A DNA stretch of 64,000 bases from Candidatus Poribacteria bacterium (lineage in GTDB: Bacteria > Poribacteria > WGA-4E > WGA-3G). The translations under genes and the position numbers were made by a program. How positions within the stretch are numbered: position 1 is the stretch's first letter; each line of letters begins with the position of its first letter. The notes below the pieces were generated by a model. The model did no database searches. It was given only the letters and a program-made list of their open reading frames with translations, and was not told the origin of the DNA. The stretch is from positions 572 to 64,571 of the forward strand of contig JAJDWA010000027.1 in assembly GCA_022825825.1 (NCBI GenBank), read 5' to 3'. Shown here one piece after another: positions 13,321-46,475 of the stretch.

Positions 13321-13395
13321 GGTTCGGTTTCTAACCACACCATTTACAAGTTCGGTTAGGAAACCGAACTTGTAAATGCCAAAAAGCATATTTAG
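13321..13395. repeat. Perfect 18-bp-stem hairpin with the GGTTAGGAAACC core.
   Basis: catttacaagttcggtt-agg-aaaccgaacttgtaaatg, preceded by ggttcggtttctaacc. Confidence 0.55.
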
Positions 13396-13444
13396 CGTTA
13401 ATTCGTAGTGTCCAAATAACCACTTGTTTTACAATAAAAGCAAT

Positions 13445-13480
13445 AGGCGCGGTTTGAAACCGCGCCTACAACGAAAATGA
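13445..13480 (-). terminator. Candidate rho-independent terminator for the LamG gene (also a member of the taggcg...cgcctac hairpin family).
   Basis: GC-rich stem aggcgcggttt/aaaccgcgcct, followed on the minus strand by ttgcttttattgtaaaa. Confidence 0.4.
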
Positions 13481-13502
13481 ATATTTCAGATTTTACGGTA
13501 AA

Positions 13503-14297
13503 CTAACGCTGAGTAGCCTTTAGTCTTCCCCATGTAGTCGTCAATTTGCCACGCGCTTCAACAGCCAGATGTTCAGTGATACCACTGTTCATAATGGATT
13601 CAACTTCTTCATGCGTTAACCCGCGTTTCCAGACGTTTAATTCATCCATGAGTCCGTTAAAAGGACGGTTATTGTCGATGTTATACCCAACGCGCGCACC
13701 CTGCCCCCAATCTCCTGCGATAGGCGTTCCTACAAGTGCCTTTTGCTCCTGAACTTTGACACCGTTGATGTAGAGATAAGCCATTCCTTCTTCTCGACTG
13801 AACGTGCCAGCATAATGCACCCAATCTTTGGCTTTATTTGTACCTCCACGGATATCAAATATCTTTACACCACCAGCACTCCGATTCAACCAACGATAAT
13901 TGCCGTCTCCACGTGCCTCCGGGTGTACAAGCCACGTGCTGTCTCCTGCACGGGCATTGAAAATTGCCATATCTGCGACTGCTTCAACATTGATCCAGGC
14001 AACAACACTCATCCCCTCTGTCGGAATATGTTCAGGATCAACGTTTGCACCGTCCAAATCAAGAAAACTACCTGATGCAAAATGTGCAGCTTTTCCAAAC
14101 TTACCATCGTTAGACTGTGTCACCTTTCCCATGATTTTGCCATCATAACCGTACCCGGATTTTTCTATAACATCTCCACCCTTAAACTCTTCAAAATCGA
14201 AATAAAGCACTAAATCCGGATCTAATACATCAGCGGACAAACCGCTCATTTGAAATGTCAATAGTAGACATACGAGAATTACTATACTTTGTTGCAT
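13503..14297 (-). CDS. Secreted LamG/concanavalin-A-like lectin domain protein.
   Basis: Start chosen at MQQSIVILVCLLLTFQMSGLSA (signal peptide; ATG 14297..14295). The body is LamG_3-like (...AHFASGSFLDLDG...FNGLMDELNVWKRGLTHEEV). Confidence 0.65.
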   Translation of the reverse strand: MQQSIVILVCLLLTFQMSGLSADVLDPDLVLYFDFEEFKGGDVIEKSGYGYDGKIMGKVTQSNDGKFGKAAHFASGSFLDLDGANVDPEHIPTEGMSVVAWINVEAVADMAIFNARAGDSTWLVHPEARGDGNYRWLNRSAGGVKIFDIRGGTNKAKDWVHYAGTFSREEGMAYLYINGVKVQEQKALVGTPIAGDWGQGARVGYNIDNNRPFNGLMDELNVWKRGLTHEEVESIMNSGITEHLAVEARGKLTTTWGRLKATQR

Positions 14298-14468
14298 TTG
14301 AGAAGCTCCTTCGTAATAGGTTTTATGGAAGCAATCTCCTGATCGCTGTTCCGTTGTGTTAAGTATATCATTTTTTGCCGATCTCTGCAATTAAAAATCG
14401 TGATAGTTTTTTCTTGATTTTTACACTGTATTGCGGTAAATTAGATTTAAGTACTTTGGAGAAACGAA

Positions 14469-16978: not shown

Positions 16979-16988
16979 AGGGAAGAAA

Positions 16989-20333: not shown

Positions 20334-20750
20334 TGGCCTTTGCGGAGTTATCCGAATTTCTTATGAACCGAAAGTTTCTCAGTCGTCTGCTCTATGGTCA
20401 TTACATAGTTGTTTTTGCTATTGACAAACGGACAGCAAAAGTCCAGTGTCAACGATTTGCGATGTAATACGGTGAAAGCGTGAACAAAGAAGATGTTGAA
20501 AAAACTTGGTAGATTTGATAATCTGATGGTACCTGAGATATCCTCCTAACTATGGTCAAATGATGTTATTTTTTATAATTAGGATGACAACTCATGCGTT
20601 TAAAATCAAGTCAAATTTTCAAAATAAACGCATTTTCATGGCTTTAGACCCTCTTTGTATTGATGTTTAGTAGGTTCTGAGCAATTCAGATAAATATCAG
20701 ATAAATTAATCTTCATTCAAGGGGAATGCGTCTGTCCTATCAAAATTGAA

Positions 20751-20780
20751 TTCTTTTATCAAACTCACGTTATAGTAGAC
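20751..20780. repeat. Solo copy of the MITE/IS terminal repeat, adjacent to the transposase remnant.
   Basis: ttcttttatcaaactcacgttatagtagac is nearly identical to 35661-35695 (ttcttttatcaagctcacgttatagtatac). Confidence 0.55.
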
Positions 20781-20829
20781 ATATATGTGATTCATACAGC
20801 GTATGTTAATAACTATTAAGGAGATTTCA

Positions 20830-23125: not shown

Positions 23126-23340
23126 CGAGAGGCACGAACAAAAAATACAGGACTTACGCATTTTTATAAAATGGTGTATACTATTCTATTATAACTGCAC
23201 GCTGTGGAATTTCGTTATCATGGAAAGTCAGCAACAGCTGAAAATGCAGAGCATGCAGTGAAAACCTTCAATATAGTTCGCTCGGCAATTCGAAAAGCGT
23301 TGAAATTGTCATAAAATAACTACAGAGGTTGGTTTAACCC

Positions 23341-25783: not shown

Positions 25784-26062
25784 CTATTCGGATGCTAAGG
25801 CGCGTATCTGATTAACTGTTTTGATAACTTCCTCATCAACGATACCAACTTCTTCCGCTGTGTTATAATGCCCCAAACCGAAACGGATAGCAATTACCAC
25901 CAATTTATTCGTAACTGTAACTCCCATTGAAACTAAAACATGTGATGGTGTAACAGATTCGGAATCACACGCTGAGCCTGTTGACATCGCAACACCCTTG
26001 AGTTCCATCAAAAGCGCATGACTTTGTACACCTGCGAAACAGAGATTTAGATTCCCTAACAA
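25784..26062 (-). pseudogene. C-terminal fragment of a cysteine desulfurase (IscS/NifS-like).
   Basis: ...LMELKGVAMSTGSACDSESVTPSHVLVSMG...IRFGLGHYNTAEEV matches the IscS/NifS C-terminal block that contains the active-site Cys loop (SACDS). Only 92 aa are present and no PLP domain lies upstream. Confidence 0.55.
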
Positions 26063-26249
26063 ACTCAGGTTATTTTAGGGTGTGTAAAGTTTTTGTAGAA
26101 CAGTGGTGTGTAAAGAAATGAGATGTTGCGAGGTATAAAAAATGGTATCCTATCCTAATAATATAGGAGAAGATACCAATGCTGAATATTATAGTCAAAT
26201 CCATAATTATTTGGACACTACGGTAGGTGCGATTTCCTAATCGCCCCCG

Positions 26250-26365
26250 ATGGGTCTGGGAAATGGTTATGAATGCCTTTTGGTGAATACGCGTATGGTA
26301 TTCGCCATGATTCCCCGTCCGGTATTCTGAATTGGTTAGGAAACCGCTCCTACCAAGGTTGTTCA
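26250..26365. repeat. Family-2 element fragment.
   Basis: Shares attcgccatgattc and ggttatgaatgcc with the 38662-38866 copy, then ttggttaggaaaccgctcctaccaagg. Confidence 0.45.
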
Positions 26366-26465
26366 CATATTTAGGTTTATTATGAAACATTAACGGATGT
26401 GATAGATGCCCCAGAAAAACCGGTACAGTCTTATTAGAGGTTGGCGCATCCCAGAATCAAATAAA

Positions 26466-28604: not shown

Positions 28605-28623
28605 TATGAATACAAAATGCCTG

Positions 28624-29946: not shown

Positions 29947-29978
29947 GGTTTAACGTTTTCGCTTCATTAACTTGTATA

Positions 29979-30080
29979 GTGAATTATAAAAATAAATTGA
30001 CACTCTCATTCTCGGTAGGCGAGGTTTCCTAACCTCGCCAGTGTAGCGTGTTCAAGTAATTCTAAAACCTACTATATATG
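29979..30080. repeat. Family-2 MITE/REP-like element (short form).
   Basis: gtgaattataaaaataaattgacactctcattctcggtaggcgaggtttcctaacctcgcc...aaacctactatatatgg. Its ends match the 38662-38866 copy and the core hairpin ggcgaggtttcctaacctcgcc. Confidence 0.6.
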
Positions 30081-30197
30081 GCAGAATTTGAATACAGAAA
30101 TATGCCATTATGCTGCCAACGAATAGCATTTGCAGTCGAAACTTAAACAGGACTGTTAACTTGGGCGGTTAACCAGATCAGCGAGATATTCTACGAT

Positions 30198-32561: not shown

Positions 32562-32600
32562 TAATTTCTCCTATTATAAATATCACTTCAGAAATTGTTT

Positions 32601-34016: not shown

Positions 34017-34312
34017 TTATCTCCCCTTTGCTGAAGGTTATTATGTTTATTTTAGTTTAATAACTATTATATCATTGAATTAAGGGGTTGTCAAGGAAAA
34101 AGGGAGCGAATGTTACTTTTTGCACTTGACTCCTCAAAAAAAATATGATAAATTTTTACAACATAGTTGTTCATAAAAATGTCCTTATTTATCAGAAAGG
34201 TTTCTTTATTGATTTTTTGAAAGTCATGTCTAATAGTTGGTAAACTCTCGGACTGTTCCTTCTCGACTGTATATTCGATACATCTTTTACAAGAAGATAG
34301 AGGGTAACACCG

Positions 34313-35185
34313 ATGCGCAATAACAAAATTTTTGTTTTATTCTGCTTTATAGGTATTAGTGCTTTCCTGGTCTACTTTCTTATAAAGATAGAAGACTCTG
34401 AGCGGAAAAAGAAAGCTGCTACTGCCCCAATTGAACTACCCTATACTTGGGTAGGCAATATTAGCAAAACAACAATCGCTGAACCTTCTGGCGTAACCTA
34501 TCACCCAATACGGCGAACTCTATTTGTTGTGGACGATGAGGGGCATATTTATGAGATTCGCCCAGACGGGACGGTTATTCAGACGAAGGCACTGCAAGCG
34601 CGTGATCTTGAAGGAATTACGACTAACCCCACAACAGGATGGCTTTATGCGGCTGTTGAGGATGATGAAGCCATTTTGGAAATTAGTCCACAGACACTTA
34701 CGATCCATCGAGAATTTAAAATCAATCGTACTTTCGAGGGAAAACCCCTTCTTAAAAAAGGAGGCATGGGAATAGAGGCAATAGCCTTTGTTCCGGACGC
34801 ATCGCACCCAGAGGGCGGAACTTTTTGGATTGGCAATCAATCATTTAGCCGAAAACCTGACGGGGAACCGTCAATTATATGTGAAGTGGTTGTGCCGCTT
34901 CTCACCTCCGAAGCAGCAGAAGCGGAAGTTAAAATTATCCGTTTCTTTAAGATGGGGTTCTTGGATATTTCTGGACTTGCCTACAACGCAAAGGCAGATT
35001 CTCTTGTCCTAATCAGCGATACAACGAACCTTTTGGTAGAACTAAAACGTGATGGAACAAACCTTCATCGCTACTTGTTACCGGGTGATGACCAAGAAGG
35101 TATTACGTTAGATGGACTCGGCTATATGTATATTGCACAGGAAAGTGGACAGATCATCAAGTTGGCTGATCGAAGGCTCCGTTAA
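34313..35185 (+). CDS. SdiA-regulated / YjiK-like beta-propeller domain protein (membrane-anchored).
   Basis: N-terminal TM anchor. IAEPSGVTYHPIRRTLFVVDDEGHIYEI...DLEGIT...GGMGIEAIAFVP matches the SdiA-regulated (PF06977) pattern. Confidence 0.65.
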   Translation: MRNNKIFVLFCFIGISAFLVYFLIKIEDSERKKKAATAPIELPYTWVGNISKTTIAEPSGVTYHPIRRTLFVVDDEGHIYEIRPDGTVIQTKALQARDLEGITTNPTTGWLYAAVEDDEAILEISPQTLTIHREFKINRTFEGKPLLKKGGMGIEAIAFVPDASHPEGGTFWIGNQSFSRKPDGEPSIICEVVVPLLTSEAAEAEVKIIRFFKMGFLDISGLAYNAKADSLVLISDTTNLLVELKRDGTNLHRYLLPGDDQEGITLDGLGYMYIAQESGQIIKLADRRLR

Positions 35186-35201
35186 AAAGAAAATTAGATG
35201 T

Positions 35202-35405
35202 TCACTCGGTATCTTGGAGGCGAAGCACAGCGACTTCGGGCATCAAACCTAAAACATGGTTCAGAGAAGCGTATTGTTCAGCCGTATACCCGCAATCTAC
35301 TCGCCATAACACCTGAATGTTGCCTTCATCGTAGATAACACCAGTGGCAAGTTTATTCCCTTTAACATCTTCTAACTGAAAACCCTTGCGGCGTTTCGTG
35401 TCCAT
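35202..35405 (-). CDS. Small hypothetical protein (67 aa).
   Basis: ORF only; no motif. It is adjacent to MITE copy b. Confidence 0.25.
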   Translation of the reverse strand: MDTKRRKGFQLEDVKGNKLATGVIYDEGNIQVLWRVDCGYTAEQYASLNHVLGLMPEVAVLRLQDTE

Positions 35406-35448
35406 AGCAGGATCCCTACAATTCAGGACTTCTAAAAGCCAATTATTT

Positions 35449-35694
35449 TATAGTATAACGTGAGTTTGATAAATCCCGTAGGCTTCTAAGTCCGATTTAG
35501 GACCTCTCTCTGGTAGGCGCGTTTAGAAAACGCGCCTACCAAGGGGTGTGGCCGATAAATTGACGCATAAGGGTTTCGCTGCGCTTTATCCAACGGACTA
35601 TACTCAATCTAATTACTAAACTCACGTTATTATACTAAAGATGCGTCCATCCTATTAAAATAAAATTCTTTTATCAAGCTCACGTTATAGTATA
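35449..35694. mobile_element. A roughly 245-bp MITE-like element with 25-bp terminal inverted repeats (copy b).
   Basis: Left end ttatagtataacgtgagtttgataaa (35449-35474). Right end tttatcaagctcacgttatagtata (35670-35694) is its near-perfect reverse complement. Inside are the hairpin ggtaggcgcgtttagaaaacgcgcctacc and a third TIR-like copy at about 35620. Confidence 0.6.
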
Positions 35695-35698
35695 CACG

Positions 35699-36535
35699 TT
35701 AAAGTTCAACAAAATCAGCATTTACGCGATGCGGAATCACACCAGCTTCATGACCACGGTTAAGCAATTCCTGTACCGCTTTTCTACCACTTTCTCCATA
35801 ATCCAAAGTATAATCATTAACATACATTCCAACGAACTTATCCGCGAGGTCGGTTTCCATGTCTCGTGCATAAGTCATTGCATATTCAAGTCCGCTCTCC
35901 CGATGTTCAAGTGAATATTGAATACTTTGTTTTAACAAAGATGTAATAGAGCGAATTTTCTCGATTCCGAGGTTGCGGCGGATAACATTTGCCCCAAGAG
36001 GTAGCGGCAGCCCAGTTTCTTCGTGCCACCATTCACCTAAATCAACTATTTTATGAAGCCCCTCGCGTGTGTAGGTCAGTTGTCCCTCATGAATGATGAG
36101 TCCTGCGTCTACTTCGCCTTTTTGGACAGCCTCAATAATCTTGTCGAAGCGGCGCGTTTCTGTTTCAACATCGGCGTGGAAGAGTTTCATCGTCAAATAG
36201 GCAGTAGTCATCTCTCCCGGTATTGCTATCCGTTTCCCAGTAAGAGTTTTCATTGGTGTTTTGGAAACGATTAGAGGCCCGTACTTATCCCCAATGCTTG
36301 CACCACAAGGCATGATTGCGTAATTATCTGCAACATACGCATAGGCGTGAACGGAAATCGCTGTAACTTCAAGTTCTGCGGCCAGTGCGCGTTGATTCAA
36401 AGTTTCAATGTCTTCTATAACGTGGAGAATTTCAAAAGGTGTCGTTGGAATAATCCCTTTTGCAAGGGCATAGAACATGAACGCATCATCAGAATCTGGA
36501 CTATGCCCAATCCGAATCTTCTCAGTCTCTGACAT
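35699..36535 (-). CDS. mqnD: Menaquinone (futalosine pathway) MqnA/MqnD-family protein, probably 1,4-dihydroxy-6-naphthoate synthase.
   Basis: RIGHSPDSDDAFMFYALAKG... is MqnA/MqnD periplasmic-binding-like fold signature. Length 278 aa. Confidence 0.65.
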   Translation of the reverse strand: MSETEKIRIGHSPDSDDAFMFYALAKGIIPTTPFEILHVIEDIETLNQRALAAELEVTAISVHAYAYVADNYAIMPCGASIGDKYGPLIVSKTPMKTLTGKRIAIPGEMTTAYLTMKLFHADVETETRRFDKIIEAVQKGEVDAGLIIHEGQLTYTREGLHKIVDLGEWWHEETGLPLPLGANVIRRNLGIEKIRSITSLLKQSIQYSLEHRESGLEYAMTYARDMETDLADKFVGMYVNDYTLDYGESGRKAVQELLNRGHEAGVIPHRVNADFVEL

Positions 36536-36589
36536 TAAGTGTTCCTTTCTAACATTGTTATTTCAATATGTTTATGCTATCATGATAAC

Positions 36590-37525
36590 ATGACGGCACA
36601 AAAATATCTGTATCTCATGGCGATTCCGTCTCAACTTGCAGAGCTAGTATCAGCAGAATCGGTTGCTTTGACGGGCGCTGCTCCCGATGAATATGGTATC
36701 ACAGTTTCGAATACTTGTGTTGATGTGCGACGAGGTGCCTATCTCAAAAGTTGTACTGAAGTACTCTTTGAAGTTGGAAACGTTGCTGAACTCCTTCCGA
36801 AAATTCGGTCTGCAGATTTACATGCAGACGGATTTCGGGTGTCAGTTGTTAAAAAGCCTCGCAGCCTGAATGTTGACTCAATGGCATTAGCAGGTCAGAT
36901 AGGGAGTTTCATTGGTGGCAAACCCAATTTATCGTCTCCGCAAATTGTCTTTTTAACTGTTGTTACGCCCCAAAAAATTTGGTTCGGTAGACTCCTCTCC
37001 GAATCTGATGGTATGTGGGTTGCACACGATCAGCGTCCACATGTAACTTCCAGTTCGCTACCTGCAAGGTTGGCTCGTGTTCTCGTTAACCTTGTGGCTT
37101 CTCCCGGTGAACATCTACTTGATCCGTGTTGTGGCACCGGCACGATTGTAATGTCGGCTGCACATTGCGATGTGCAAGCGTCGGGTTACGATATCAATCC
37201 GCGCATGGTAGGTGCAACAACTAAGAATCTTAAACATTACGGCCTCATGGCTGACGTTCAATTAAGCGATGCGCGGACGATCCAACAAAAGTTCGATGTA
37301 GTTGCTACGGATCTGCCTTACGGCATAAGTCTTGTTAAAGATACTACCGCGACCATAGAAATTCTGGCAAATCTACAGACTTGCGCTCCCAAAGCTGGAT
37401 TTATCGATATCCGCGATCTCAGCCAACCACTTGGTGATTTAGGGTATCAGGTAGAGAATGTCATACCTGTTCCGAAGCTACGTCTTGTTCGGCGTATTTT
37501 TATTACTTCCAGCGGCGATCAATAA
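36590..37525 (+). CDS. THUMP-domain-like class-I SAM-dependent RNA (N2-guanine/N6-adenine type) methyltransferase.
   Basis: LLDPCCGTGTIVMSAA (motif I) and DVVATDLPYG (DPPY-type motif IV). The N-terminal half is THUMP-like. ATG at 36590. Confidence 0.65.
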   Translation: MTAQKYLYLMAIPSQLAELVSAESVALTGAAPDEYGITVSNTCVDVRRGAYLKSCTEVLFEVGNVAELLPKIRSADLHADGFRVSVVKKPRSLNVDSMALAGQIGSFIGGKPNLSSPQIVFLTVVTPQKIWFGRLLSESDGMWVAHDQRPHVTSSSLPARLARVLVNLVASPGEHLLDPCCGTGTIVMSAAHCDVQASGYDINPRMVGATTKNLKHYGLMADVQLSDARTIQQKFDVVATDLPYGISLVKDTTATIEILANLQTCAPKAGFIDIRDLSQPLGDLGYQVENVIPVPKLRLVRRIFITSSGDQ

Positions 37526-37950
37526 TCGTCAATATTTTCATAAAAATCTGTTTCTGGTAAGTACTCGCCTTCATCAAGTTCATCTTCTTCATAGTCTTCG
37601 TAGTCCTCTAAACTCAAAAGTGAGTCGAGTTCACTGAGATTGTCTATGTAGATTTTGCAAATCCATCCATCACCTTCCGGTACACTGTTAATAAGTTCAA
37701 TATCTTCCTCAAGTGCTGTATTGACTTCATGGATTTCTCCGGCGACAGGCGCGTAAAGATAAAAGTTCCCTCCGGTTTCAGTTTCAATTCTGCCTATAAT
37801 TTCACCTTGCTCGCATTCTTGTTCAGGGGACACATCGACAAAAATAACCCCACCGTACAGGTGTTGCGCGCGTTCTGTAATGCCAATAGTTCCCTCTGTG
37901 TCAACAACCTCAATCCATTCATGCGTAGTTGTATATTTCACTGTGCTCAA
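37519..37950 (-). CDS. GcvH-like (glycine-cleavage H / lipoyl-domain fold) protein that lacks the lipoyl-lysine; acidic C-terminal tail.
   Basis: It aligns with GcvH (YTTTHEWIEV..., YAPVAGEIHEVNTAL, GDGWICKI). The ESVKA lipoylation site is replaced by RIETETGG. C-terminal tail DYEDYEEDELDEGEY. Confidence 0.7.
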   Translation of the reverse strand: MSTVKYTTTHEWIEVVDTEGTIGITERAQHLYGGVIFVDVSPEQECEQGEIIGRIETETGGNFYLYAPVAGEIHEVNTALEEDIELINSVPEGDGWICKIYIDNLSELDSLLSLEDYEDYEEDELDEGEYLPETDFYENIDDY

Positions 37951-37977
37951 CGTGCATTCCTCCGATAAGCTAAAACC

Positions 37978-38580
37978 TTACTGTAACTTTGTTTCTGTAA
38001 TTCCAATACTTTGAAGCTGTGCTTTGAAAGTTTTTAACTCTTTTTGCTGAATCTGAATTGCTATGTTTGGGGTTGGATCATATTCAATATTTGTTACTTG
38101 ACCTCCCAAGCGTTTACATAGTGTGACAACTGTGCCTATATGAGAGTAGGGGACATTTACATGTAAGTTGTGATAAAAAGTCAGGGTTTCTAAAGTTGCA
38201 TTTTCAAGACAGGCGCGTGCACATGTGCCATAAGCTCTAATCAATCCGCCAATCCCAAGATTAATTCCACCATAATACCGTGCAACAACGATTATAGTAT
38301 TAGATAATCCGGTGGCACGAATTGCCCCGAGAATAGGAGGACCTGCCGAATGTATCGGTTCACCTGCATCTGTTGAATATTCCAACTTTTCATCACCGCT
38401 ACCAAGACTATAAGCATAACAGTAGTGCGTGGCTTGACGAATCCGTGCCCTGATATCAGCAACAAACTTTTTGACTGAATCGTGGCTATTTACTGCTGAT
38501 GCTTCACCGAAAAACCGTGATTTTTTGACTACATGTTTAGCGGTAGCGATTCCGACAATTGTTTGATACTCCCCTGACAT
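37978..38580 (-). CDS. YigZ / IMPACT-family (UPF0029) protein.
   Basis: KKSRFFGEASAV...AYSLG....STDAGEP..SAGPPIL is the IMPACT N-domain signature. Start at MSGEYQ (38580). The ORF-track N-terminal extension would overlap a MITE. Confidence 0.7.
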   Translation of the reverse strand: MSGEYQTIVGIATAKHVVKKSRFFGEASAVNSHDSVKKFVADIRARIRQATHYCYAYSLGSGDEKLEYSTDAGEPIHSAGPPILGAIRATGLSNTIIVVARYYGGINLGIGGLIRAYGTCARACLENATLETLTFYHNLHVNVPYSHIGTVVTLCKRLGGQVTNIEYDPTPNIAIQIQQKELKTFKAQLQSIGITETKLQ

Positions 38581-38661
38581 AATACTTGTTTTTGTAATAT
38601 TGGATACTGTATCTGTATAAAAGTTTGAAAGTTTTCGATAAATGATATGCTTAAGATTATG

Positions 38662-38866
38662 GTGAATTATAAAAATAAATAGGCACTTTCGTCTCACGGT
38701 AGGCGGGGAATGCCTAAAGACGAATACGCCAAATCAACGGTATGAATGCCATTTAGGCATTCCCCGGGCATTCGCCATGATTCATACCTTTGATTTCTTG
38801 GTTTGGAGGTTTCCTAACCTCGTTGGCACAGAGCGTCCAAATAATTCTAAAATCTACCATAAATGT
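38662..38866. repeat. Family-2 MITE/REP-like element (long form).
   Basis: It starts gtgaattataaaaataaat, contains the ggtaggcgggg...ccccg hairpins and a ggtttcctaacc core, and ends aaatctaccataaatg. A short-form copy is at 29979-30080 and a reverse-orientation copy at 46399-46475. Confidence 0.6.
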
Positions 38867-38895
38867 TCAAAACAGTTGGATGTATTAAAGATCGC

Positions 38896-40050
38896 TTAAA
38901 AGTTCTGTCCGATTGAAAAGGTGTAGACAGCGGGGCCTTGGACGATGTGGATGCGTTCATCCTCAGACACACTTGGCTTGAATTGGGGGGTATAAGCGGC
39001 ATTTAATATAATGTTTCCGAACCGCACGCCAAATCCCAAGCAGAGACCTTCTGCCTTCCAATTTCGCTCTTCCATTTCAAGTGTAGCATCTTCCAAAAGG
39101 AAAACCGAGGCGTAACGTTTTTCAGTGTCCCTAATATATCCGATTCTGCCGCCAATGCGGTTGCGATACCAAATCTCAGTTCCAAGATTGATTCGGGCTC
39201 CATCACTAAAAGGCAGATGTAAATCTAAACCGAGCCGTAAAGACATGTTCGAAATTTCGCGTTGATAAGTTATACCGGCAGTGAAATCGCGGCGGATTTT
39301 ATCTGGGATAGTGGGGTCCACAAAGGACAAACCATTACTCAAATTGCGAACGACAATGCCTGCCTGAAATGCGTTTCCAAATTTCTGAATAAGTCCAACA
39401 TTATATGCGTAACCATGTCCAAAATGCTCGGTTTCCGACGGATCGGTGACTTTAGACCGTAACCACTTCGCATCAAATCCGACAACAGTGTTTCCAAAAC
39501 AATTTACACCGTAACCGATCCCGATAGCAAGGTTATTTTCTGGAAAACTATTGAGTGCTTTCCCTTCGTGGTTGACACGGCGAAAGGCACCCTCATGTGC
39601 TGTGGATAGAGCGACACCTATCGTGCCGAACTTGCCTATTGGAAATGCCCAATTCAATGTTTCAATACCGGAAGCACGCTGTTCATACTGACTATAATCC
39701 TCGTAGCTTGCATCGAAATTCGGTTTTGAAAGAAGAGCAATAGTTCGTGGAAAACGGGTCATGTGAATTACAAATCGGTTTCCTTTAGTAACACTGATAC
39801 CAGCAGGGTTGCTGCCGAGTGCGCTTGCGCCACCGGTTGTCCCAACAAAACTACCACCCATGCCACGATGTTCAGCACCGATCAACTGTTTTAGAAACCT
39901 GTCTGCTTCTGCTGTTGTGGTTGCTTTTGATGCAATTCCATTCGAAATGGAAAAGCAGAAAACAAGGTAAAATATATAAATCAATAAAGAGGTTTGTAAA
40001 CGTTGTGATAATAGGGTTCGCGGGTGTAAAAAATGCAAATTTCTCTTCAC
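38896..40050 (-). CDS. Putative outer-membrane beta-barrel protein (possibly PorV/PorQ-like T9SS component).
   Basis: Signal peptide, alternating amphipathic beta-strand pattern, Gly/aromatic-rich, terminal ...FSIGQNF with a C-terminal Phe. The PorV-like assignment is a guess from length (about 380 aa) and T9SS cargo nearby. Confidence 0.45.
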   Translation of the reverse strand: MKRNLHFLHPRTLLSQRLQTSLLIYIFYLVFCFSISNGIASKATTTAEADRFLKQLIGAEHRGMGGSFVGTTGGASALGSNPAGISVTKGNRFVIHMTRFPRTIALLSKPNFDASYEDYSQYEQRASGIETLNWAFPIGKFGTIGVALSTAHEGAFRRVNHEGKALNSFPENNLAIGIGYGVNCFGNTVVGFDAKWLRSKVTDPSETEHFGHGYAYNVGLIQKFGNAFQAGIVVRNLSNGLSFVDPTIPDKIRRDFTAGITYQREISNMSLRLGLDLHLPFSDGARINLGTEIWYRNRIGGRIGYIRDTEKRYASVFLLEDATLEMEERNWKAEGLCLGFGVRFGNIILNAAYTPQFKPSVSEDERIHIVQGPAVYTFSIGQNF

Positions 40051-40142
40051 TTTTCTTACTTACTCCAAAATATGTGTGTAGATATATCTGTGGCCACAGT
40101 GGGACGAACTTTTACACAGAGACAAAAGCACACAACCTAAAA

Positions 40143-40343
40143 ATAACGCGAGTTTGATAAATCAGATTTTGTATTCGGTGCAGTTAGGAAACCGCCAAAT
40201 CAAGAAATCAACGGTATGAACGCCATTTAGGCGTTCCCCGGGTATGAATGCTATATAGCATTCCCCGCCTACCAGGTCTATGAGAGTAATATTTTTGGAA
40301 AAATGAAGTTCATATATCTATTATCATACTCACGTTAAAAATA
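40143..40343. mobile_element. A roughly 200-bp MITE-like element (copy c) with the same TIR family as copy b.
   Basis: Left ataacgcgagtttgataaat (40143-40162). Right ttatcatactcacgttaaaaata (40321-40343). The interior shares about 50 bp with the 38662-38866 element (ccaaatcaa...cggtatgaa.gccatttaggc.ttccccgg). Confidence 0.55.
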
Positions 40344-40358
40344 CGATAGTTCTCTTAA

Positions 40359-40754
40359 CTAAGAGGAACAAAGCGTTACTTGTGCGACTGCATAATCAAC
40401 CGCGTGTGAGAGACTAATAAAGCTTGTAACAACACCGAGTTCTGAAGCATATTGCTTGACTTTTCCGTGTAAAATGAGCGATGGTTTTCCAGCGGCATTC
40501 GCGCAAACTTCTACATCTTGCCAATACATTCCAACTGTTAATCCTGTTCCGAGTGCTTTCAGAGTTGCCTCCTTTGCCGCGAACCGAGTGGCAAGTCTTG
40601 CATAACGTGTTTGTGTTTTTCCACAATATGCAAGTTCCTGAGGTGTATAGACGCGATGTTCAAACTTGCTCCCCCACCGAAGAGAAAGGCGTCTGATCCG
40701 TTCAATCTCAATAATATCAATGCCGATCCCTTGAATTTTTTGTTGGAGCATCAA
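40359..40754 (-). CDS. acpS: Holo-[acyl-carrier-protein] synthase.
   Basis: GIGIDIIEIERI...FAAKEATLKALGTG is a canonical AcpS. Confidence 0.8.
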   Translation of the reverse strand: MMLQQKIQGIGIDIIEIERIRRLSLRWGSKFEHRVYTPQELAYCGKTQTRYARLATRFAAKEATLKALGTGLTVGMYWQDVEVCANAAGKPSLILHGKVKQYASELGVVTSFISLSHAVDYAVAQVTLCSS

Positions 40755-40774
40755 TTTTTCTGATTCGTGTCTGT

Positions 40775-41602
40775 TTACCGATAAAGAGCGTCTGTAATTC
40801 GTGCTGCGCGGACTGTAGCCTCCACATCATGAACGCGTACGATATCTGCGCCATGTGCAATTGCCCAACACACTGTAGCAAGGGTGCCTTCACCCCTTTC
40901 AGTTACAGGAAGTTCTAATAAATTACCGATAAACGATTTTCGTGATGTGCCGATTAATATCGGTTTGTTTAGTTGCCTGAATACGTCGAGATGTTTTAAA
41001 ATCTGTAAATTCTGTTCGATAGTTTTGCCGAATCCGATACCCGGGTCTATAATAACACGGTCAGGGTCAATACCGTTTTGCGCTGCATCGTTAATCCAAT
41101 TCTCTAATGCCTCATAAACCTCTTCCACAACATTTTCATACTGTGGCGCGCGCTGCATAGTACGCGGTATCCCCTTCATGTGCATGAGAATAACACCTGC
41201 TTCCATTTCTGCTGCAACGTGTGCCATCGCCGCATCCCCGCGAAGTGCGGTAATATCGTTGATGATATGTGCCCCAGCTTCAAGTGCTTGTTCTGCTACC
41301 ACAGCTTTGGTGGTATCAATAGAAAGCGGAACATCCAGTTGTTCAGAAGCGAGCGCATGGATAACCGGTAATACCCTATTTAATTCTATTTCTGCTGTTA
41401 CCGGTTCTGATCCTGGGCGCGACGATTCCCCACCAATATCAATAATAGTTGCCCCTTCTGCTACCATGGTTTTGGCATGTGTAATCGCGCAGTTGACATC
41501 AAGGTAAGCACCACCATCCGAAAAGGAATCAGGGGTGACATTCAGAACACCCATAATATGGGTGCTGCCGCCAAAAGCGAGCGATTTACCACGGTAATTC
41601 AT
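40775..41602 (-). CDS. folP: Dihydropteroate synthase.
   Basis: IMGVLNVTPDSFSDGG...IIDIGGESSRPG...INDI. Confidence 0.9.
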   Translation of the reverse strand: MNYRGKSLAFGGSTHIMGVLNVTPDSFSDGGAYLDVNCAITHAKTMVAEGATIIDIGGESSRPGSEPVTAEIELNRVLPVIHALASEQLDVPLSIDTTKAVVAEQALEAGAHIINDITALRGDAAMAHVAAEMEAGVILMHMKGIPRTMQRAPQYENVVEEVYEALENWINDAAQNGIDPDRVIIDPGIGFGKTIEQNLQILKHLDVFRQLNKPILIGTSRKSFIGNLLELPVTERGEGTLATVCWAIAHGADIVRVHDVEATVRAARITDALYR

Positions 41603-43494
41603 GTGAGGGGTTTAGCTGGCAACTGAGGCCGAGGACCGAGTATCTCTTCAATTTCTTCGGTAATTAGTGTTTCCCGTTCTAATAAGGCATCGGCGAGCAA
41701 TTTCAAACCATCAAGATTGGTCTCTATAATCTCTTTCGCTTTTTCGTAACATTCCATTATGATGGCACAAACGGCTTTATCAATAGAGACAGCTGTTTCT
41801 TCACTATAATCTTGATGTACTGCCAATTCTTTACCGAGGAAGACCTGTTCGTCTCTCCTGCCGAAAGCCAATGGCCCCAATGGACTCATGCCCCATTGTG
41901 TGACCATTCGCCGGGCAAGATGGGTTGCTTGTTCAAAATCATTTTGCGCGCCGGTTGTTTGCTCACCGAAGATAATTTCTTCAGCTACGCGTCCACCGAG
42001 TGCAAAAATAATATGTGCAAGTAACCTTTTCTTACTTAGGTTATGTCGTTCTTCAAGTGGGAGCATAGCAGTTACACCGAGTGCTCTACCGCGTGGCACA
42101 ATCGTACACTTATAATTAGGATCGCTTTCCGGCACAAAATGCAACATGAGAGCATGTCCTGCTTCATGATAGGCAGTGATGCGCCGTTCTTCATCACTAA
42201 TCACCAAACTACGGCGTTCAGGCCCCATCAAGACGCGATCTTTAGCTTCATCAAAGCAGCTCATGTCAATTGTATCTTTGTCTTGCCTCGCGGCAAGCAG
42301 CGCGGCTTCATTCGCCATATTTTTTAGGTCTGCGCCTGAGAATCCTGGTGTTGCTTTTGCTAATATCTCCAAGTCAACGTCTTCAGAAATTTTATAGGGT
42401 TCTTTTGTGTGAACGCCGAGAATGGCTTGTCTGCCGCGAACATCAGGTAAATCAACGATAATCTGACGGTCAAACCTGCCGGGGCGTAGTAGAGCCGGAT
42501 CAAGAACATCAGGACGGTTTGTAGCTGCAATCACAATGACGCCTTCAGATGCCTCAAAACCTTGCATTCCAACAAGAAGTTGATTTAAAGTTTGTTCGCG
42601 TTCATCGTGGCCACCGCCGATGCCAGCACCCCGATGGCGTCCAACAGCATCAAGCTCATCAATAAAAATGATACAAGGGGCATTTTTCTTACCTGTTTCA
42701 AACAGGTCACGGACTCTGGAAGCGCCGACTCCGACAAACATTTCAACAAAATCGGATCCACTAATGTCGAAAAATGGAACATCCGCTTCACCTGCAACGG
42801 CTTGTGCCAGCATTGTTTTACCAGTACCTGGAGGACCGACTAACAACACACCTGTAGGAATTGTGCCGCCAAGCCTTTCAAACTTCTTAGGGGCTTTGAG
42901 AAATTCAATAATCTCTTCGAGTGCTTCTTTCGCCTCGTCTACCCCCGCAACATCTTCAAAGGTAATCTTTTTATCACTTTCAGTATAGAGTGTAGCACGA
43001 CTTTTACCAAAAGATAATGCGCGGTTTCCGCTTCCCTGCATCTGCCGAGATAGAAAGATCATCAAACCCAAAAATATCAATAATGGGACTATTGTCGTGC
43101 CAAAAACGAGTAGCCAGTCAGGAAAATTAGAGGCGGGTTTGGCATCGTACAGAATGCCACTTCCATCAAGTTTCTCCTGGAGTTTGTAATCGTCATTTGT
43201 ATCACGACTTGCCTTAAATTCTCCCATCCATTTTGGAGGCAGCACCACATTTTTCATCTCCAATTCTGCCGTAATTTTGCCCAGATAACTCTCGTGAAAC
43301 TTGCCTTCAATCCACTCGTCATCAAGAATGAGATAGTCATCAAAGAGACTACCTCCTTCCTTTATGTAGTTATGAAAGTCAGAGGTAGCTAACTGGAGAA
43401 CTTGGTCGCCACGGTTGATAAGTTGGTAAATAGCGACAACAACAACCAACCCCAAAATAAACCACACGAACATGTTTTTTGTGTTTTTGTTCAC
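41599..43494 (-). CDS. ftsH: ATP-dependent zinc metalloprotease FtsH.
   Basis: N-terminal TM, Walker [12 protein letters not shown] motif, HEAGHA zinc site. Confidence 0.95.
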
Positions 43495-43821
43495 AACCTA
43501 TCGCCTCGTTTTCATTAAAATTATCACACTTGGAGCGATACTATAGACTATAGCATGCATTCAGAACAGACACTTAAATTGTGCACGCACAAGCAATTTT
43601 AGTGGTACCTGCTTATTTTGTGTTTGTTTTAGAAAGATTTTGAACCTGACTTATAAATTATAACACACTTTTTACTTAATATCAACTGAATTTAAAAAAA
43701 CTCCTTTCTCACATCAATACCTTTGCCAAAAATGGACGCTTCTTCATAAATCAACCAGGGTTATTTAGTTTTAAGTATTTTTATTTATGAGGTTAACTAT
43801 GGGTTTAGGTCTTGAGGATAG

Positions 43822-43880
43822 GTGTGGTTTCCTAACCGCACTGGTCAGATGTGGCTAATAGTGCGGTTAGGAAACCACAC
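43822..43880. repeat. Long perfect inverted repeat (21-bp arms, 17-nt spacer) containing the GGTTAGGAAACC core.
   Basis: gtgtggtttcctaaccgcact ... agtgcggttaggaaaccacac. It lies in the 620-bp ftsH / 44119 divergent intergenic region. Confidence 0.7.
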
Positions 43881-44054
43881 ACGCCGAATCATGAAAAATA
43901 CCTTATGTGTGTATGCTACCACGCGCATGCGGCGTTGATTCACCAGGAAGTGTGCATATATTATAGATTGGATGGTATCGTAAATATTAATGTTTGTGAT
44001 AAAATTGCAAGAAAAACCGAAAACTAAATAATCCTGGATATTGAATAAATTTGG

Positions 44055-44084
44055 TTGACAAAATTAAATTAACTATGATATACT
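44055..44084 (+). promoter_or_regulatory. Candidate sigma70-like promoter for the 44119 gene.
   Basis: TTGACA (44055-44060), an 18-nt spacer, TATACT (44079-44084). GGAGG RBS 9 nt before the GTG at 44119. Confidence 0.4.
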
Positions 44085-44118
44085 ATACCATAATAGTGTT
44101 CAAAGGAGGAGTAATAAA

Positions 44119-44823
44119 GTGCGTACACAAATTCTTTTGGCAAGTGTCCTGTTGTTGACAGTGATGTCTTATGCATTAGGACATCTTACCGACGAAAATC
44201 TTCAAAATTTCCAATATAACGCAGAACTTGTGCCAGTCGCGCCTATCGTTGATGGATATCTTGATGATCCGGTATGGGAGGAAGCATCAGTTGGTAAACT
44301 TGAACAAGAAATCATGCACGAGCATCGGTGGCCGGAATCCAATGATTTCACGGGATCCTTCAAAGCGGTTTGGCGTAGTGGATTTCTTTATGTCGCTATT
44401 AAAATACAAGATGACCAGTTTGAGAAATATCAATCTAAGCTTTTTAGAGCAGATCAACTTATCCTCCATATTGACCAATTTCACTATCAACGTAAGGATG
44501 AGCTCTACCGCTATGAAATTCCTATTGGAATAGAAGAAGGCATCCTGAAACCCCCTCTAACATCAGTAGCCTGGGGAAATGATGGTCAGACTTGTGAATT
44601 AAGTTTTCGGCTTGGAGGCATCGCGAGTAAAGATAGTGTTATCAGTTTTAGTATTGCCTATGATGACGTTGATAACGGTCAACTACAAAATAAAATCGCT
44701 TGGGCGCCAGTAGGTTATACAGAACAGGATGACAGACTTCCAGATCTCGTTTTTACAGCGAAGATAGATCCTAATGTACAACAGAAATTGATCCGATGGG
44801 GACAAATCAAAAGACTTTATTAA
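44119..44823 (+). CDS. Secreted carbohydrate-binding (CBM9/DOMON-like) domain protein.
   Basis: Signal peptide MRTQILLASVLLLTVMSYALG. DDPVWEEA...F...LWR..FLYVAIKIQDD resembles CBM family 9-like sugar-binding modules. Confidence 0.5.
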   Translation: MRTQILLASVLLLTVMSYALGHLTDENLQNFQYNAELVPVAPIVDGYLDDPVWEEASVGKLEQEIMHEHRWPESNDFTGSFKAVWRSGFLYVAIKIQDDQFEKYQSKLFRADQLILHIDQFHYQRKDELYRYEIPIGIEEGILKPPLTSVAWGNDGQTCELSFRLGGIASKDSVISFSIAYDDVDNGQLQNKIAWAPVGYTEQDDRLPDLVFTAKIDPNVQQKLIRWGQIKRLY

Positions 44824-44893
44824 TAACATATCAGGGCAATTCCAACATTTAGTATATCACTAAAATGTTGGAATTTGTTCTAAAAACGACAGA

Positions 44894-45079
44894 ATGTTGT
44901 ATTATATTGGAAAAACTTTAGAACTGATGGGCATAGCATGTTTAGGTGCTGCACTCTATTTGGGACTTTTCAACCCCTTTGGGTATAGTGAAACTCAAGC
45001 TATGGGGGCTGAGATGGGTTTCTTAGCACTCGGAATTATTGTTTTTTTTGTTGGAAGACTTATTGAAAAACAACATTAG
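44894..45079 (+). CDS. Small hypothetical membrane protein (61 aa, 2 TM).
   Basis: ORF with two hydrophobic helices; no motif. Confidence 0.3.
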   Translation: MLYYIGKTLELMGIACLGAALYLGLFNPFGYSETQAMGAEMGFLALGIIVFFVGRLIEKQH

Positions 45080-45183
45080 AAATTATCATTATTTCCCTAA
45101 TTAGACAGACACTGATCAAGTGTTGTCTTTTGCGCTCCATCCTAAAGCCAAATATTATAAACTGAATATTAGTCCGCTTCTGC

Positions 45184-46269
45184 TCACTTTGTCTGTGAAG
45201 ATGATGAGATTGTGGGTTGGTCTGCGTCAAAATATCCATAGACCGGAATACGTATCGGCGTGGAAGTTGCTGAGGTCGTGATACGAATTTCTTCACGTAA
45301 CAGGGAAGGTGATTTTGATACATCCCAGGACACTTTAAACCATCTTTCGTAAAGCGGTGAACCTGTTTTGGATTGTACAGTTTTGGGAATATCAACAATC
45401 TCTAAAGAGTCGGGGGCTTGAATGCTTAACACCTTAAACTCGGTTTTTGCAGAGAGCGTGAATTCTAATGATGGTATTGCTTCCTTGTTTATTGTGCCAT
45501 AAGAAAGATTTTCCGGTTTAACTGTTACAGGTCCTATAATTCTTGCTATAATCGGTAACGTCAAGGTGCGTTCATTTGGAAAAGCTACCGTGAGTAGCGC
45601 TGAAAAAGGTTCACCAACATTATAGTGATTAGTTTTGGCTGCTCTATCTCTTTTCTGAACGTTCAAGTAAATCGTGATTATAAAACACTCTGAACTCGGA
45701 GCGGGTGTTATATCCCATGTTAACATTGGATATTCTGAAGGTAGAAGCCGAATTTCTTGTTGATTGATCGGTGCATTGATACACAGTTTAACCTGCTTTT
45801 CATACAGTGTTTTAGGTAAGATTTCTCCAAAATCACATACCTCTGCACTCAGCGTTGCAAACCGTTTTGCTGTCGCAACAATTGTCAAATAGACTTGTGG
45901 TGTCTTAGGACTATCTGTAAAAAGAATTACAGTTGCTGAAGTCGTATCATCAGGTAGGAATTGCGGATCAAGGAGGACCTTAAACGTCCCTTCCTTACCT
46001 GGTGGAATCGCCTTTGGTCCCTCAATTTCAATATAATTACAACCGGTTTGGATTCTGTTTATATGGAGAAGACGTTTTCCGGTGTTTTGTGCCGAAACCG
46101 TTCGTGTTACTCGTCCTTCCCACTCAGGGACTGTTCCAAAGTCAAGTTGCGTTTGAGAAAGAACTAACTCCCCTGGAAATTCTTTTCGGTTATTGATTAA
46201 GACGACTATTAATCCTGAAATTAGCAGTCCGGGAATAATAACTGTCGTCAGAATTTTACGTTTTGACAT
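45184..46269 (-). CDS. DUF1573-domain (Ig-like) membrane-anchored protein.
   Basis: N-terminal TM anchor. LDFGTVPEWEGRVTRTVSAQNTGKRLLHINRIQTGCNY matches the DUF1573 consensus (FDFG.v..G......f...N.G...L.I..v...C.C). A second similar module is at CDFGEIL. Confidence 0.6.
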   Translation of the reverse strand: MSKRKILTTVIIPGLLISGLIVVLINNRKEFPGELVLSQTQLDFGTVPEWEGRVTRTVSAQNTGKRLLHINRIQTGCNYIEIEGPKAIPPGKEGTFKVLLDPQFLPDDTTSATVILFTDSPKTPQVYLTIVATAKRFATLSAEVCDFGEILPKTLYEKQVKLCINAPINQQEIRLLPSEYPMLTWDITPAPSSECFIITIYLNVQKRDRAAKTNHYNVGEPFSALLTVAFPNERTLTLPIIARIIGPVTVKPENLSYGTINKEAIPSLEFTLSAKTEFKVLSIQAPDSLEIVDIPKTVQSKTGSPLYERWFKVSWDVSKSPSLLREEIRITTSATSTPIRIPVYGYFDADQPTISSSSQTK

Positions 46270-46398
46270 AGCCTCATTTTAGCGTTATATCAGTCTATCC
46301 ACTGTTCTGGAACATTAGGCTTATAATATATCTTACTACCTTGTCTCTGTCTACTGAAAACTTCCAAAGACTTGACTCCTAAAATGTAAAACGGTATA

Positions 46399-46475
46399 TT
46401 ATGGTAGATTTTAGATATATTTATACATTGCTGCTCTGGCGAGGTTAGGAAACCTCGCCTACCGTGGGGTGGAAG
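46399..46475. repeat. Family-2 element, reverse orientation.
   Basis: tattatggtagattttagat... then ggcgaggttaggaaacctcgcctaccgtggggtgg; this is the reverse complement of the 29979-30080 hairpin and end. Confidence 0.55.

Follow-up and report, generated by a model that had tools for sequence, protein, structure and literature searches.

Between the genes of a 64,000-nucleotide stretch of the Candidatus Poribacteria contig JAJDWA010000027.1 (hereafter the window, taken at its full length; G+C 43%) lie short palindromic repeats that are very probably explained by a repetitive extragenic palindrome (REP) system with its REP-associated tyrosine transposase (RAYT), together with non-autonomous elements nested in and around one another. 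The 12-nt core that recurs in these repeats, GGTTAGGAAACC, can be identified with high confidence as the apex of a REP hairpin. The Poribacteria REP belongs to the REP-RAYT class because RAYT genes are present, are bracketed by the same REP and adjoin a stem that is shared with copies in the window; the RAYTs themselves are known from relatives, not from the window's own genome. A sequence-only reading of the window had proposed one modular family of palindromes resembling REPs or miniature inverted-repeat transposable elements (MITEs). The non-autonomous, modular, palindromic and MITE- or REP-like character that it proposed is borne out by insertion polymorphism and by the cognate RAYT, but the single family is not, for the copies prove to be composites of at least five distinct repeat types.

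All eight loci listed in that reading hold repeats as described when the sequence is read at each, with the modules at their positions and with copies in both orientations. The exact core occurs seven times on the two strands of the window, far above the 0.01 expected from dinucleotide shuffles; at 40170-40290 it carries one mismatch (AGTTAGGAAACC), and at 35515-35545 it is absent, its place being taken by a related hairpin, GGTAGGCGCGTTT-AGA-AAACGCGCCTACC. Alignment extends well past these 12 nt into shared ends and a shared module: comparison of the window with itself finds both ends in common to 29975-30080, 38658-38865 and 46399-46503, a 41-nt module (cggtatgaatgccatttaggcattcccc) that is 93% identical between 38731-38771 and 40205-40245, and 92% complementarity between 38781-38818 and 40183-40220. 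Every window copy lies between real genes, the open reading frames (ORFs) that are overlapped (12732-13334 on the plus strand, 26070-26390 on the minus strand) being without Pfam support, and the intergenic bases of 1.07 Mb of Poribacteria sequence, only 19.5% of the total, hold 193 of the 199 cores counted there (p=2e-127, on crude gene calls).

Beyond the window, a scan of GTDB (one genome per species, pattern GGCGNGGTTTCCTAACCNCGCC) matched at least 119 stretches, all of them in metagenome-assembled genomes (MAGs) and drawn from about 44 assemblies by a count of the isolate names listed. Among the matches listed, nearly all are labelled Candidatus Poribacteria, the rest being a few unnamed MAGs and one contig labelled Candidatus Coatesbacteria. 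This contig of 2.3 kb (L104, DAOVLG010000395.1), which bears the only label of another phylum among those matches, may be a mis-binned Poribacteria fragment. Viral contigs gave no match to the REP pattern and, to judge from these scans, the REP family is confined to Candidatus Poribacteria. From the window and the matched loci 196 exact cores were gathered (192 where wider flanks were required), and among copies not picked by the search pattern the core density is about 0.1 per kb.

The hairpin that surrounds the core is 22-26 nt long, with a 9-bp stem, a 4-nt AGGA/TCCT loop and a GGTAG or GCTGG tag at one end; the core is the upper 4 bp of this stem together with the tetraloop. On the TCCT strand the order is 5'-GGTAG followed by G-NNN-GGTT-TCCT-AACC-N'N'N'-CC, and on the AGGA strand GG-NNN-GGTT-AGGA-AACC-N'N'N'-CC followed by TACC (the GGTAG tag read on the other strand) or AGC (GCTGG). 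The search pattern biases the sample, in which about 67 of 195 copies end in CC-TACC (GGTAG) and about 107 in CC-AGC (GCTGG); in the window the GGTAG tag accompanies the copies at 30014, 38698, 40266, 46438 and 35511. Covariation across the nine-pair stem was assessed in 81 distinct copies from outside the search-pattern selection. In these, 88.9% of stem cells are paired, against 30-52% once the partner column is slid, and double-sided stem changes number 87 against 36.6 in shuffles, with none of 500 shuffles reaching 87. Variable stem triplets switch together (CGA/TCG, TTC/GAA, TGC/GCA), giving stem sub-families in which columns 7/24, 8/23 and 9/22 switch between UA and CG, GC and UA, and AU and CG, respectively. 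Folded as single-stranded DNA, window copies reach z values of -3.4 to -11.5 against shuffles. The defining features of GTAG-tagged REP elements have been set out previously (PMC3733652). Stem length, loop length and pairing all fall within what is expected of a short REP palindrome (20-40 nt, 6-13 bp stem), and hairpin structure, covarying stem and intergenic location together point to a REP of the GTAG-tagged kind.

Mechanistically, REPs are defined by their association with RAYTs. Candidate transposases were sought by phmmer with E. coli TnpA_REP, whose sequence is identical to PDB 4ER8, and a second scan, for a GGTTC stem variant in metagenome contigs, returned 101 stretches. Accessions of MKWU01, which we take to be an Aplysina aerophoba sponge metagenome, predominate among the variant matches listed. 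Three 156-aa RAYT ORFs were found by phmmer in these sponge-metagenome contigs; they score 58-61 bits against Pfam Y1_Tnp and 113-116 bits against the NCBIfam equivalog NF047646 'REP-associated tyrosine transposase' (cutoff 80), and conserve the HUH motif (PDHIH) and the YxYxNP tyrosine motif of 4ER8. Searching protein sequences with one of these ORFs gave 142 homologues, several on Poribacteria chromosomes of 5-6 Mb, and every homologue named by NCBI comes from Candidatus Poribacteria.

The position of these genes ties them to the repeat. Inverted REPs bracket the RAYT at distances of 6-135 nt in L229, L227, L197, L146 and L139, with a TCCT-orientation REP upstream and an AGGA-orientation REP downstream; at the metagenome-contig RAYTs the upstream REPs are tagged GGTAG and the downstream REPs CTACC. 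Three chromosomal RAYT loci were inspected (OX638351, OY761015 and L231). On chromosome OX638351, GCTGGCGAGGTTTCCTAACCTCGCC ends about 20 nt before the RAYT ATG and GCGAGGTTAGGAAACCTCGCCAGC begins 7 nt past the stop codon, a layout that recurs in OY761015, L197, L146 and L139. In L231 (2800-3520, a Poribacteria chromosome) the RAYT stands between REPs that have another loop in common, GGTTACAAACC instead of GGTTAGGAAACC, which suggests that a REP variant and its transposase co-evolve. GGTAG-tagged REPs flank the RAYTs of L197, L146, L139 and, with this different loop, L231, and the window copies at 30014-30039 and 46438-46463 have the same GGCGAGG stem that is found beside the RAYTs. In the few genomes examined there is one RAYT locus per genome.

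Most hairpins sit within larger frames, lettered here by type: of 199 cores, 74 lie in A-like and 75 in B-like frames, and the remaining 50, solo hairpins and doublets among them, in neither. The ends gtgaattataaaaataaat and aaatctaccataaatg of the sequence-only reading are the two termini of one A-type element of about 103 nt, laid out as TA-TAGTAGATTTTGAAATTACTTGAACACTCTGCATC-REP-GTGGGGCGAAAGTGTCAACTTATATTTATAATTCACTA-TA, with termini of the form TA-TAGTRGATT and AATTCACTA-TA. Nearly all of 26 full copies begin and end with TA. Variation in the adjoining dinucleotide takes the form of an inverted repeat (TATG...CATA), not a direct one, which makes this dinucleotide part of the terminal inverted repeat (TIR); TATA as a 4-bp target duplication is thereby ruled out, and TA fits. 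Non-coding, shorter than 200 bp, bounded by TIRs, ending in TA and inserted at TA, the A-type has the features of a TA-MITE. The window contains three clear copies and two decayed relatives (Table 1).

T-type elements are bounded by TAACGYGAGTTTGATAA inverted repeats, and two are present in the window. The TAACGYGAGTTTGATAA motif has 10 window matches at three mismatches or fewer against 0.57 expected; six of these (0-2 mismatches) lie at T-type ends, and the others are chance-like, falling in the tandem repeats of a flotillin-like gene or at 26056. A 56-nt segment ending in a T-type terminus (…TTTATCAAACTCACGTTATAGTA) is 88% identical between 20726-20781 and 35641-35696, the copy at 20.7 kb being a solo end with no partner TIR nearby. 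F-type elements end in CAGGGTTATTTAGTTTTCGG.../...AAAACTAAATAACCCTG and have a second, diverged copy at about 52908-53222; a tRNA-Ala(GGC) gene (53783-53858, minus strand) belongs to the spacer adjoining it. The two F copies have one conserved end of about 55 nt and another of about 70 nt around unrelated interiors, and the REP doublet is found only in the 43.8-kb copy. As a presence/absence test for that doublet, the F paralogues were unusable, their interiors being too diverged. D-type units, about 40 nt long and of the form CGGGGAATGCC-loop-GGCATTCATACCGTTGATTT, correspond to the cggtatgaatgcc... module of the sequence-only reading and occupy two fixed positions inside REPs, both in the window and at many other loci.

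Two further types come from related loci. The B-type, absent from the window, consists of a REP, a 25-nt spacer and an inverted REP between AT-rich arms of about 25 nt (TGAAGWTTAA...TTAAWCTTCA). The 12-nt flanks of 30 full copies are mutually complementary at a mean of 7.9 positions against 3.1 in random pairs; 16 of the 30 are complementary at nine or more positions, as are 0.05% of random pairs, and direct repeats are essentially absent. B elements thus occupy the loops of hairpins that were already in place and leave no target duplication; their flanks come from six or more unrelated hairpin families, among them this REP and the hairpin of the D unit. A second REPIN family, of classical form, GTAGCRCAAAYTG-loop-CAGTTTGYGC, forms doublets with outward GTAG tags in L122, L123, L013 and L028 (for example at 11170-11225 of L122), is abundant in those genomes and is a frequent host of B-type insertions; in the window stretches that were read it was not seen, no search aimed at this family having been made. 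C-type MITEs share a perfect 15-bp TIR with an insertion sequence (IS) of 923 bp and are flanked by duplications of 5-7 bp. This IS, at 4237-5159 of L079, encodes a DDE_Tnp_1_3 (IS982-like) transposase of 285 aa between perfect 15-bp TIRs (AACCTAAGTTGCCAC), is flanked by a 5-bp duplication, AACAA, and is apparently the autonomous element from which the C-type MITEs in L037 (6022-6248), L122, L123 and L013 derive. A search for ORF-bearing elements with A-, B- or T-type ends (TIR pairs 0.4-3.5 kb apart) gave, in about 1 Mb, nothing but ordinary genes apart from the IS982-like element of the C-type, and no multi-copy transposase clusters were found in the same sample.

That these elements move is seen at orthologous sites. 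The orthologous region was taken from four other Poribacteria genomes (L122-L125), anchored on a conserved 384-aa protein, and comparison with these relatives yielded both filled and empty spacers (Table 1); since spacers filled in the window are empty in sister genomes, the elements are mobile. In the spacer between the 384-aa gene and Impact_N, L122 and L123 carry different elements again, L123 having a B-type copy in the loop of a GTAGCACAATCTG... hairpin and an A-type copy at TA, both lacking in L122. The junctions at 46400, set against L125, fit insertion at TA with TA on both sides, and L123 set against L122 likewise fits a TA duplication. Elsewhere, between flanks that are 96% identical, L037 is filled and L043 empty, the 215-nt composite of L037 being flanked by a CATTATA duplication. 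In the spacer upstream of ftsH in L123 (about 6400-6600), a C-type MITE with an AATTTA duplication lies right after an extended -10, TGTTATAAT; the ftsH promoter-like site TTGATA-17-TATAAT is conserved (window 43685-43657), and the C-type site is empty in the window, L124 and L125.

Table 1. Repeat features of the window, with the spacers compared between genomes
Feature	Position	Strand	Description
Exact core GGTTAGGAAACC, starts	13354, 26334, 30023, 38808, 43826, 43865, 46443		
Degenerate A-like frame	13283..13437 (boundaries approximate)	+	Left end TATGGTAAAATCTGAATATATG resembles A-type terminus; decayed REP 13322-13343 and perfect 17-bp-stem hairpin 13341-13378, its tip being the core 13354-13365 (DNA fold -17.5 kcal/mol, z -11.5); right end 76% complementary to left end of 26190 element
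Solo REP variant TAGGCGCGGTT-TCA-AACCGCGCCTA	13444..13468	-	GTAG tag on minus strand; fold z -6.3; 35 nt downstream of stop of Laminin_G_3 gene (13503-14390, minus), followed by T-rich tract; only terminator-like context
A-like composite	26190..26385	+	Left terminus TATAGTCAAATCCATAATTATTTGG, right terminus present; decayed REP 26222-26247 (GATTTCCTAATC core); small hairpin units at about 26264-26320; REP half 26334-26354 with exact core and ...CTACC tag; internal arrangement also in L037, L022, L031 and L099
Canonical A-type MITE, 102 nt	29975..30076	-	TA at both ends; termini TAGTAGGTTTT.../...ATAATTCACTA; central REP GGTAGGCGAGGTTTCCTAACCTCGCC at 30014-30039; nhmmer 86.7 bits, model positions 1-103; z -3.35; centroid structure is the REP hairpin
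T-type element	35449..35694	.	25-nt inverted repeats TATAGTATAACGTGAGTTTGATAAA, 92% complementary; encloses the core-less REP variant (35511-35541; z -8.2) and other repeat fragments
Interrupted A-type MITE	38658..38861	-	Two nhmmer half-matches to A model; z -4.1; REP halves 38698-38705 and 38805-38821 split by 99-nt insert 38706-38804 of ~40-nt D-type hairpin units, one inside the loop of another
T-type element	40144..40337	+	Ends TAACGCGAGTTTGATAA / TTATCATACTCACGTTA; z -4.2; REP halves 40177-40196 (1-mismatch core) and 40266-40273 CGCCTACC; D-type units between them, 40197-40265
F-type TIR element, 283 nt	43755..44037	.	26-nt arms CCAGGGTTATTTAGTTTTAAGTATTT / ...AAAACTAAATAATCCTGG; encloses REP doublet
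Inverted REP doublet, REPIN-like	43822..43880	.	GTGTGGTTTCCTAACCGCAC, 18-nt spacer, GTGCGGTTAGGAAACCACAC; single long hairpin, -26.5 kcal/mol, z -10.0; 21/21 nt inverted match
A-type MITE, 104 nt	46400..46503	+	nhmmer 67.8 bits; central REP GGCGAGGTTAGGAAACCTCGCCTACC at 46438-46463; z -3.8; inserted at TA in or next to -10 hexamer of promoter-like TTGACT-17-TATATT (46372-46400), upstream of sulfotransferase gene
Spacer, 384-aa gene to Impact_N			Window 315 nt (A-type and nested D units); empty in L124 (113 nt) and L125 (102 nt)
Spacer, ACPS to 384-aa gene			Window 308 nt (T-type 40144-40337); 96-133 nt, element absent, in L123, L124 and L125
Spacer, CBM9 to ftsH			Window with F-type 43755-44037; L125 without F-type element
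Spacer, sulfotransferase to DUF1573			Window 255 nt (A-type 46400-46503); L125 106 nt, empty

Taken together, these features are best explained by one scheme. Each Poribacteria genome examined encodes a REP-associated tyrosine (HUH/Y1) transposase of about 155 aa, its gene set between inverted copies of this REP. By analogy with E. coli TnpA_REP and the REPINs of Pseudomonas, this transposase may recognise the folded single-stranded hairpin with its tag and mobilise REPs or REP doublets in trans, leaving no target duplication. The REPs of the window are very probably for the most part cargo or targets of other non-autonomous elements, the A-type among them probably being moved in trans by an IS630/Tc1-like DDE transposase, and repeated insertion of elements into one another, often into hairpin loops, very probably produced the modular mosaics. 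On this scheme the repeats are primarily selfish mobile DNA, and any regulatory effects would be secondary, as possible side effects. One extension of it is possible, although we regard it as rather doubtful: that REP-derived elements (B-type REPINs and the ~40-nt D units) insert duplication-free into the loops of unrelated hairpins and so build fractal, nested palindromes. Should RAYT drive this loop insertion, the genomes would hold a record of its choice of target, single-stranded hairpin loops, and insertion would be directed by structure, in distinction to the tetranucleotide targeting of IS200/IS605. Insertion that is targeted to hairpin loops and free of duplication is the only aspect of the system that might turn out to be new in mechanism.

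Several findings weigh against attributing the repeats to a REP-RAYT system. No RAYT gene was found, by phmmer and an HUH...Y motif search, in the window or the first ~1 Mb of loci (119 loci), nor did the intervals between inverted REP pairs in the window and these first loci contain one. The A-type REPs of the window are tagged GGTAG, whereas the REPs at two chromosomal RAYTs are tagged GCTGG. Just three or four stem sub-families or so carry the covariation, and the choice of search patterns has biased which loci were sampled. The polarity of filled and empty sites (gain versus precise loss) is not set by phylogeny; since one and the same spacer holds different elements at different positions from genome to genome, gain is the simpler of the two. 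The ~1 Mb sample yielded no transposase that bears A-, T- or F-type ends, which is weak evidence of absence. Finally, about three quarters of the sampled cores lie inside A-like or B-like frames, and many REP copies may owe their spread to those frames, as passive cargo, rather than to the RAYT.

Carried to its conclusion, this last point would make the REP a mere internal module of DDE-type MITEs (A- and B-like), spread as cargo, with the RAYT link incidental or a relic. Such frames do enclose 149 of the 199 cores, the TA termini of the A-type are typical of MITEs mobilised by IS630/Tc1 (PMC2229807), and the C-type MITEs of the same genomes have an IS982-like parent with identical 15-bp TIRs and duplications of 5-7 bp. 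We nonetheless consider it unlikely that the REP is only cargo: 50 of the 199 cores, including solo hairpins and doublets, stand in neither frame, and the B-type, lacking a target duplication and centred in unrelated palindromes (7.9 of 12 flank positions complementary, against 3.1), does not behave as a DDE element should. The same REP, moreover, brackets RAYT genes in several genomes at distances of 7-25 nt, and the variant loop on both sides of the L231 RAYT suggests co-evolution of repeat and transposase.

The sequence-only reading had also suggested that the repeats might be structured small RNAs, terminators or attenuators, or recombination hot spots. A small-RNA role is unsupported, given that Rfam returned no match at gathering scores or at E<=1, that copies stand in both orientations to flanking genes and that close relatives differ in their presence. 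Nor is a role as terminator or attenuator: a scan of 28000-47000 flagged no terminator-like site at REP loci, and no T-run follows the hairpins, the exception being 13444-13468, outside the scanned interval. The same scan flagged no outward sigma-70 promoters in A-type ends. A-type copies show no bias in orientation to flanking genes, one end facing 19 starts and 16 stops and the other 13 starts and 19 stops; an early impression of a shared orientation (3/3) was not upheld in this wider sample. A role as recombination hot spots is plausible; chimeric flanks occur in some of the B-type copies at related loci.

More generally, the hairpins could be functional RNA or DNA signals (terminators, attenuators, mRNA stabilisers or protein-binding sites) kept by selection at each locus. 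They are stable, their stems covary and their loops are highly conserved in sequence; the ends of many A-type copies are found at 6-40 nt from start codons, the 46400 copy stands between a promoter-like -10 and a ribosome-binding site and would be leader if transcribed, and the solo hairpin at 13444 lies just past a stop codon and has a T-rich tail. E. coli REPs bind gyrase and IHF and stabilise mRNA, which counts on the same side. Selection for function locus by locus is nevertheless very improbable, in view of the lack of terminator-like sites and T-runs in the scanned interval, an A-type without orientation bias, orthologous spacers in sister genomes that do without the elements, the absence of an Rfam family and a dedicated transposase that accounts for the spread without invoking function. 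If the candidate promoter is used, the 104-nt element at 46400 would form a structured 5' leader.

A number of other features were noted along the window. About 130 nt from the A-like composite at 26190, a 92-aa ORF (25784-26062) matches an aminotransferase class-V domain over no more than its final ~60 residues (Pfam 312-369 of 371) and may be a gene remnant. A 745-aa WD40-repeat gene (2200-4437) and its flanks form a block (2058-4752) that is absent in L115, L117 and L068, where the gap is about 95 nt; the block is flanked at 2115 and 4541 by direct copies of another GTAG-tagged repeat, GTAGGTCGGG[CT]AGAG...CGAAACCCG, and a fragment related to this repeat occurs at 35557-35594. The dispersed repeat CAGGACTTACGCATT is found at 12405-12425, 12505-12525, 23147-23165 and 20720-20735; the two copies at 12.4-12.5 kb face each other in inverted orientation across a G-rich segment, and in L027 and L075 the repeat adjoins a REP copy. 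Long in-frame coding repeats, tandem or dispersed and unrelated to the REP family, comprise units of 264 nt (30856-31640) in the flotillin-like gene (30198-32561) and units of 135-291 nt (60637-62741) common to the genes at 60075-61073 and 61153-63483. Type IX secretion system (T9SS)-type domains occur among the window proteins and suggested a Bacteroidota origin, but strong Shine-Dalgarno sites, which can be read in the sequence, and the Poribacteria matches of the pattern scan speak against it. A cyanobacterial origin, to which the SDR-like (small dispersed repeat) style of the sequence, as in Nostoc, had pointed, is rejected on those same matches.

The repeats would represent the first described REP-RAYT system, and the first set of MITE families, for Candidatus Poribacteria. 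As a sequence marker for Poribacteria contigs in sponge metagenomes, the 22-nt REP is highly specific and could aid binning, and the repeats are a likely cause of assembly breaks in Poribacteria MAGs. That some insertions fall at promoter -10 regions points to a possible influence on gene expression, and the many filled and empty orthologous sites offer a good natural system in which to follow the dynamics and nesting of REPINs and MITEs.

Among known systems, the REPINs of P. fluorescens (Bertels & Rainey 2011, PMC3116915) resemble the doublet at 43822-43880 and the B-type in joining two inverted REPs and a spacer into one long hairpin, in leaving no target duplication, in forming clusters through insertion into or next to existing repeats and, for the few genomes examined, in having one RAYT locus per genome. 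They differ in that the B-type adds an AT-rich TIR of about 25 nt (TGAAGWTTAA...) outside the REP pair and lies almost always in the loop of another, unrelated hairpin (compare PMC3116915). The A-type, judged by its ends and size, is one of the small TA-terminated bacterial MITEs (PMC2229807), resembling but not belonging to the Correia elements. With Correia (CREE/NEMIS) and the pneumococcal RUP (Delihas 2008, PMC2229807; PMC5039591) it shares a length of about 103 nt, AT-rich ends, bounding TIRs, 5'-TA-3' termini, insertion at TA, folding into long stem-loops and a frequent position just upstream of genes. Its terminal 13 nt match the Correia repeat TATAGTGGATTAA at 11/13 positions on the right (TATAGTGAATTAT) and at 9/13 on the left (TATAGTAGATTTT), a likeness that ends after about 13 nt, the remainder of the 26-bp Correia inverted repeat (tatagtggattaacaaaaaccggtacgg and variants) being different and the IHF-site module of Correia elements not having been identified in the A-type. 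Correia elements, moreover, are reported as unique to Neisseria (PMC2229807; PMC5039591), and the centre of the A-type is a RAYT-type REP hairpin. RUP has a cognate transposase in IS630-Spn1, whereas none was identified for the A-type.

The small dispersed repeats (SDR) of Nostoc and Anabaena are reported to have been described by Elhai et al. in 2008 (Genome Res 18:1484; cited in PMC5861425 and PMC3116915). They too are reportedly tiny hairpin-forming units of tens of nucleotides, nested in other repeats and present or absent at orthologous sites with no obvious target duplication; they belong to another phylum and are unrelated in sequence, and the main Poribacteria hairpin has, in contrast, an identified RAYT partner.

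Also close are the GTAG-tagged REPs and their RAYTs, or REPtrons, exemplified by the REPs and bacterial interspersed mosaic elements (BIMEs) of E. coli with TnpA_REP (YafM, PDB 4ER8) (Di Nocera et al. 2013, PMC3733652). The Poribacteria repeat shares with them an extragenic palindrome of 20-40 nt (short loop, 9-bp stem), in part of the sampled copies a GTAG-type tag left unpaired beside the stem, stem changes that are complementary from one sub-family to another, an occurrence as singletons and as head-head or tail-tail dimers, and a Y1/HUH RAYT gene between inverted REPs; like BIMEs, it associates with other short motifs into mosaics. It departs from them in that more than half of the sampled copies, including those at two chromosomal RAYTs, are tagged GCTGG, that most copies lie within larger TIR-bounded elements, and that the host is an uncultivated phylum of sponge symbionts; as far as the text of that paper alone allows a judgement, its sequence is unrelated to the 24 published GTAG families (PMC3733652). 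No paper that links Poribacteria to REPIN, RAYT, MITE, palindromic repeats or IS200 came up in the literature search. The kind of system is thus well known, and the Poribacteria family, on present comparisons, is new in its sequence, its host phylum and its frequent GCTGG tag.

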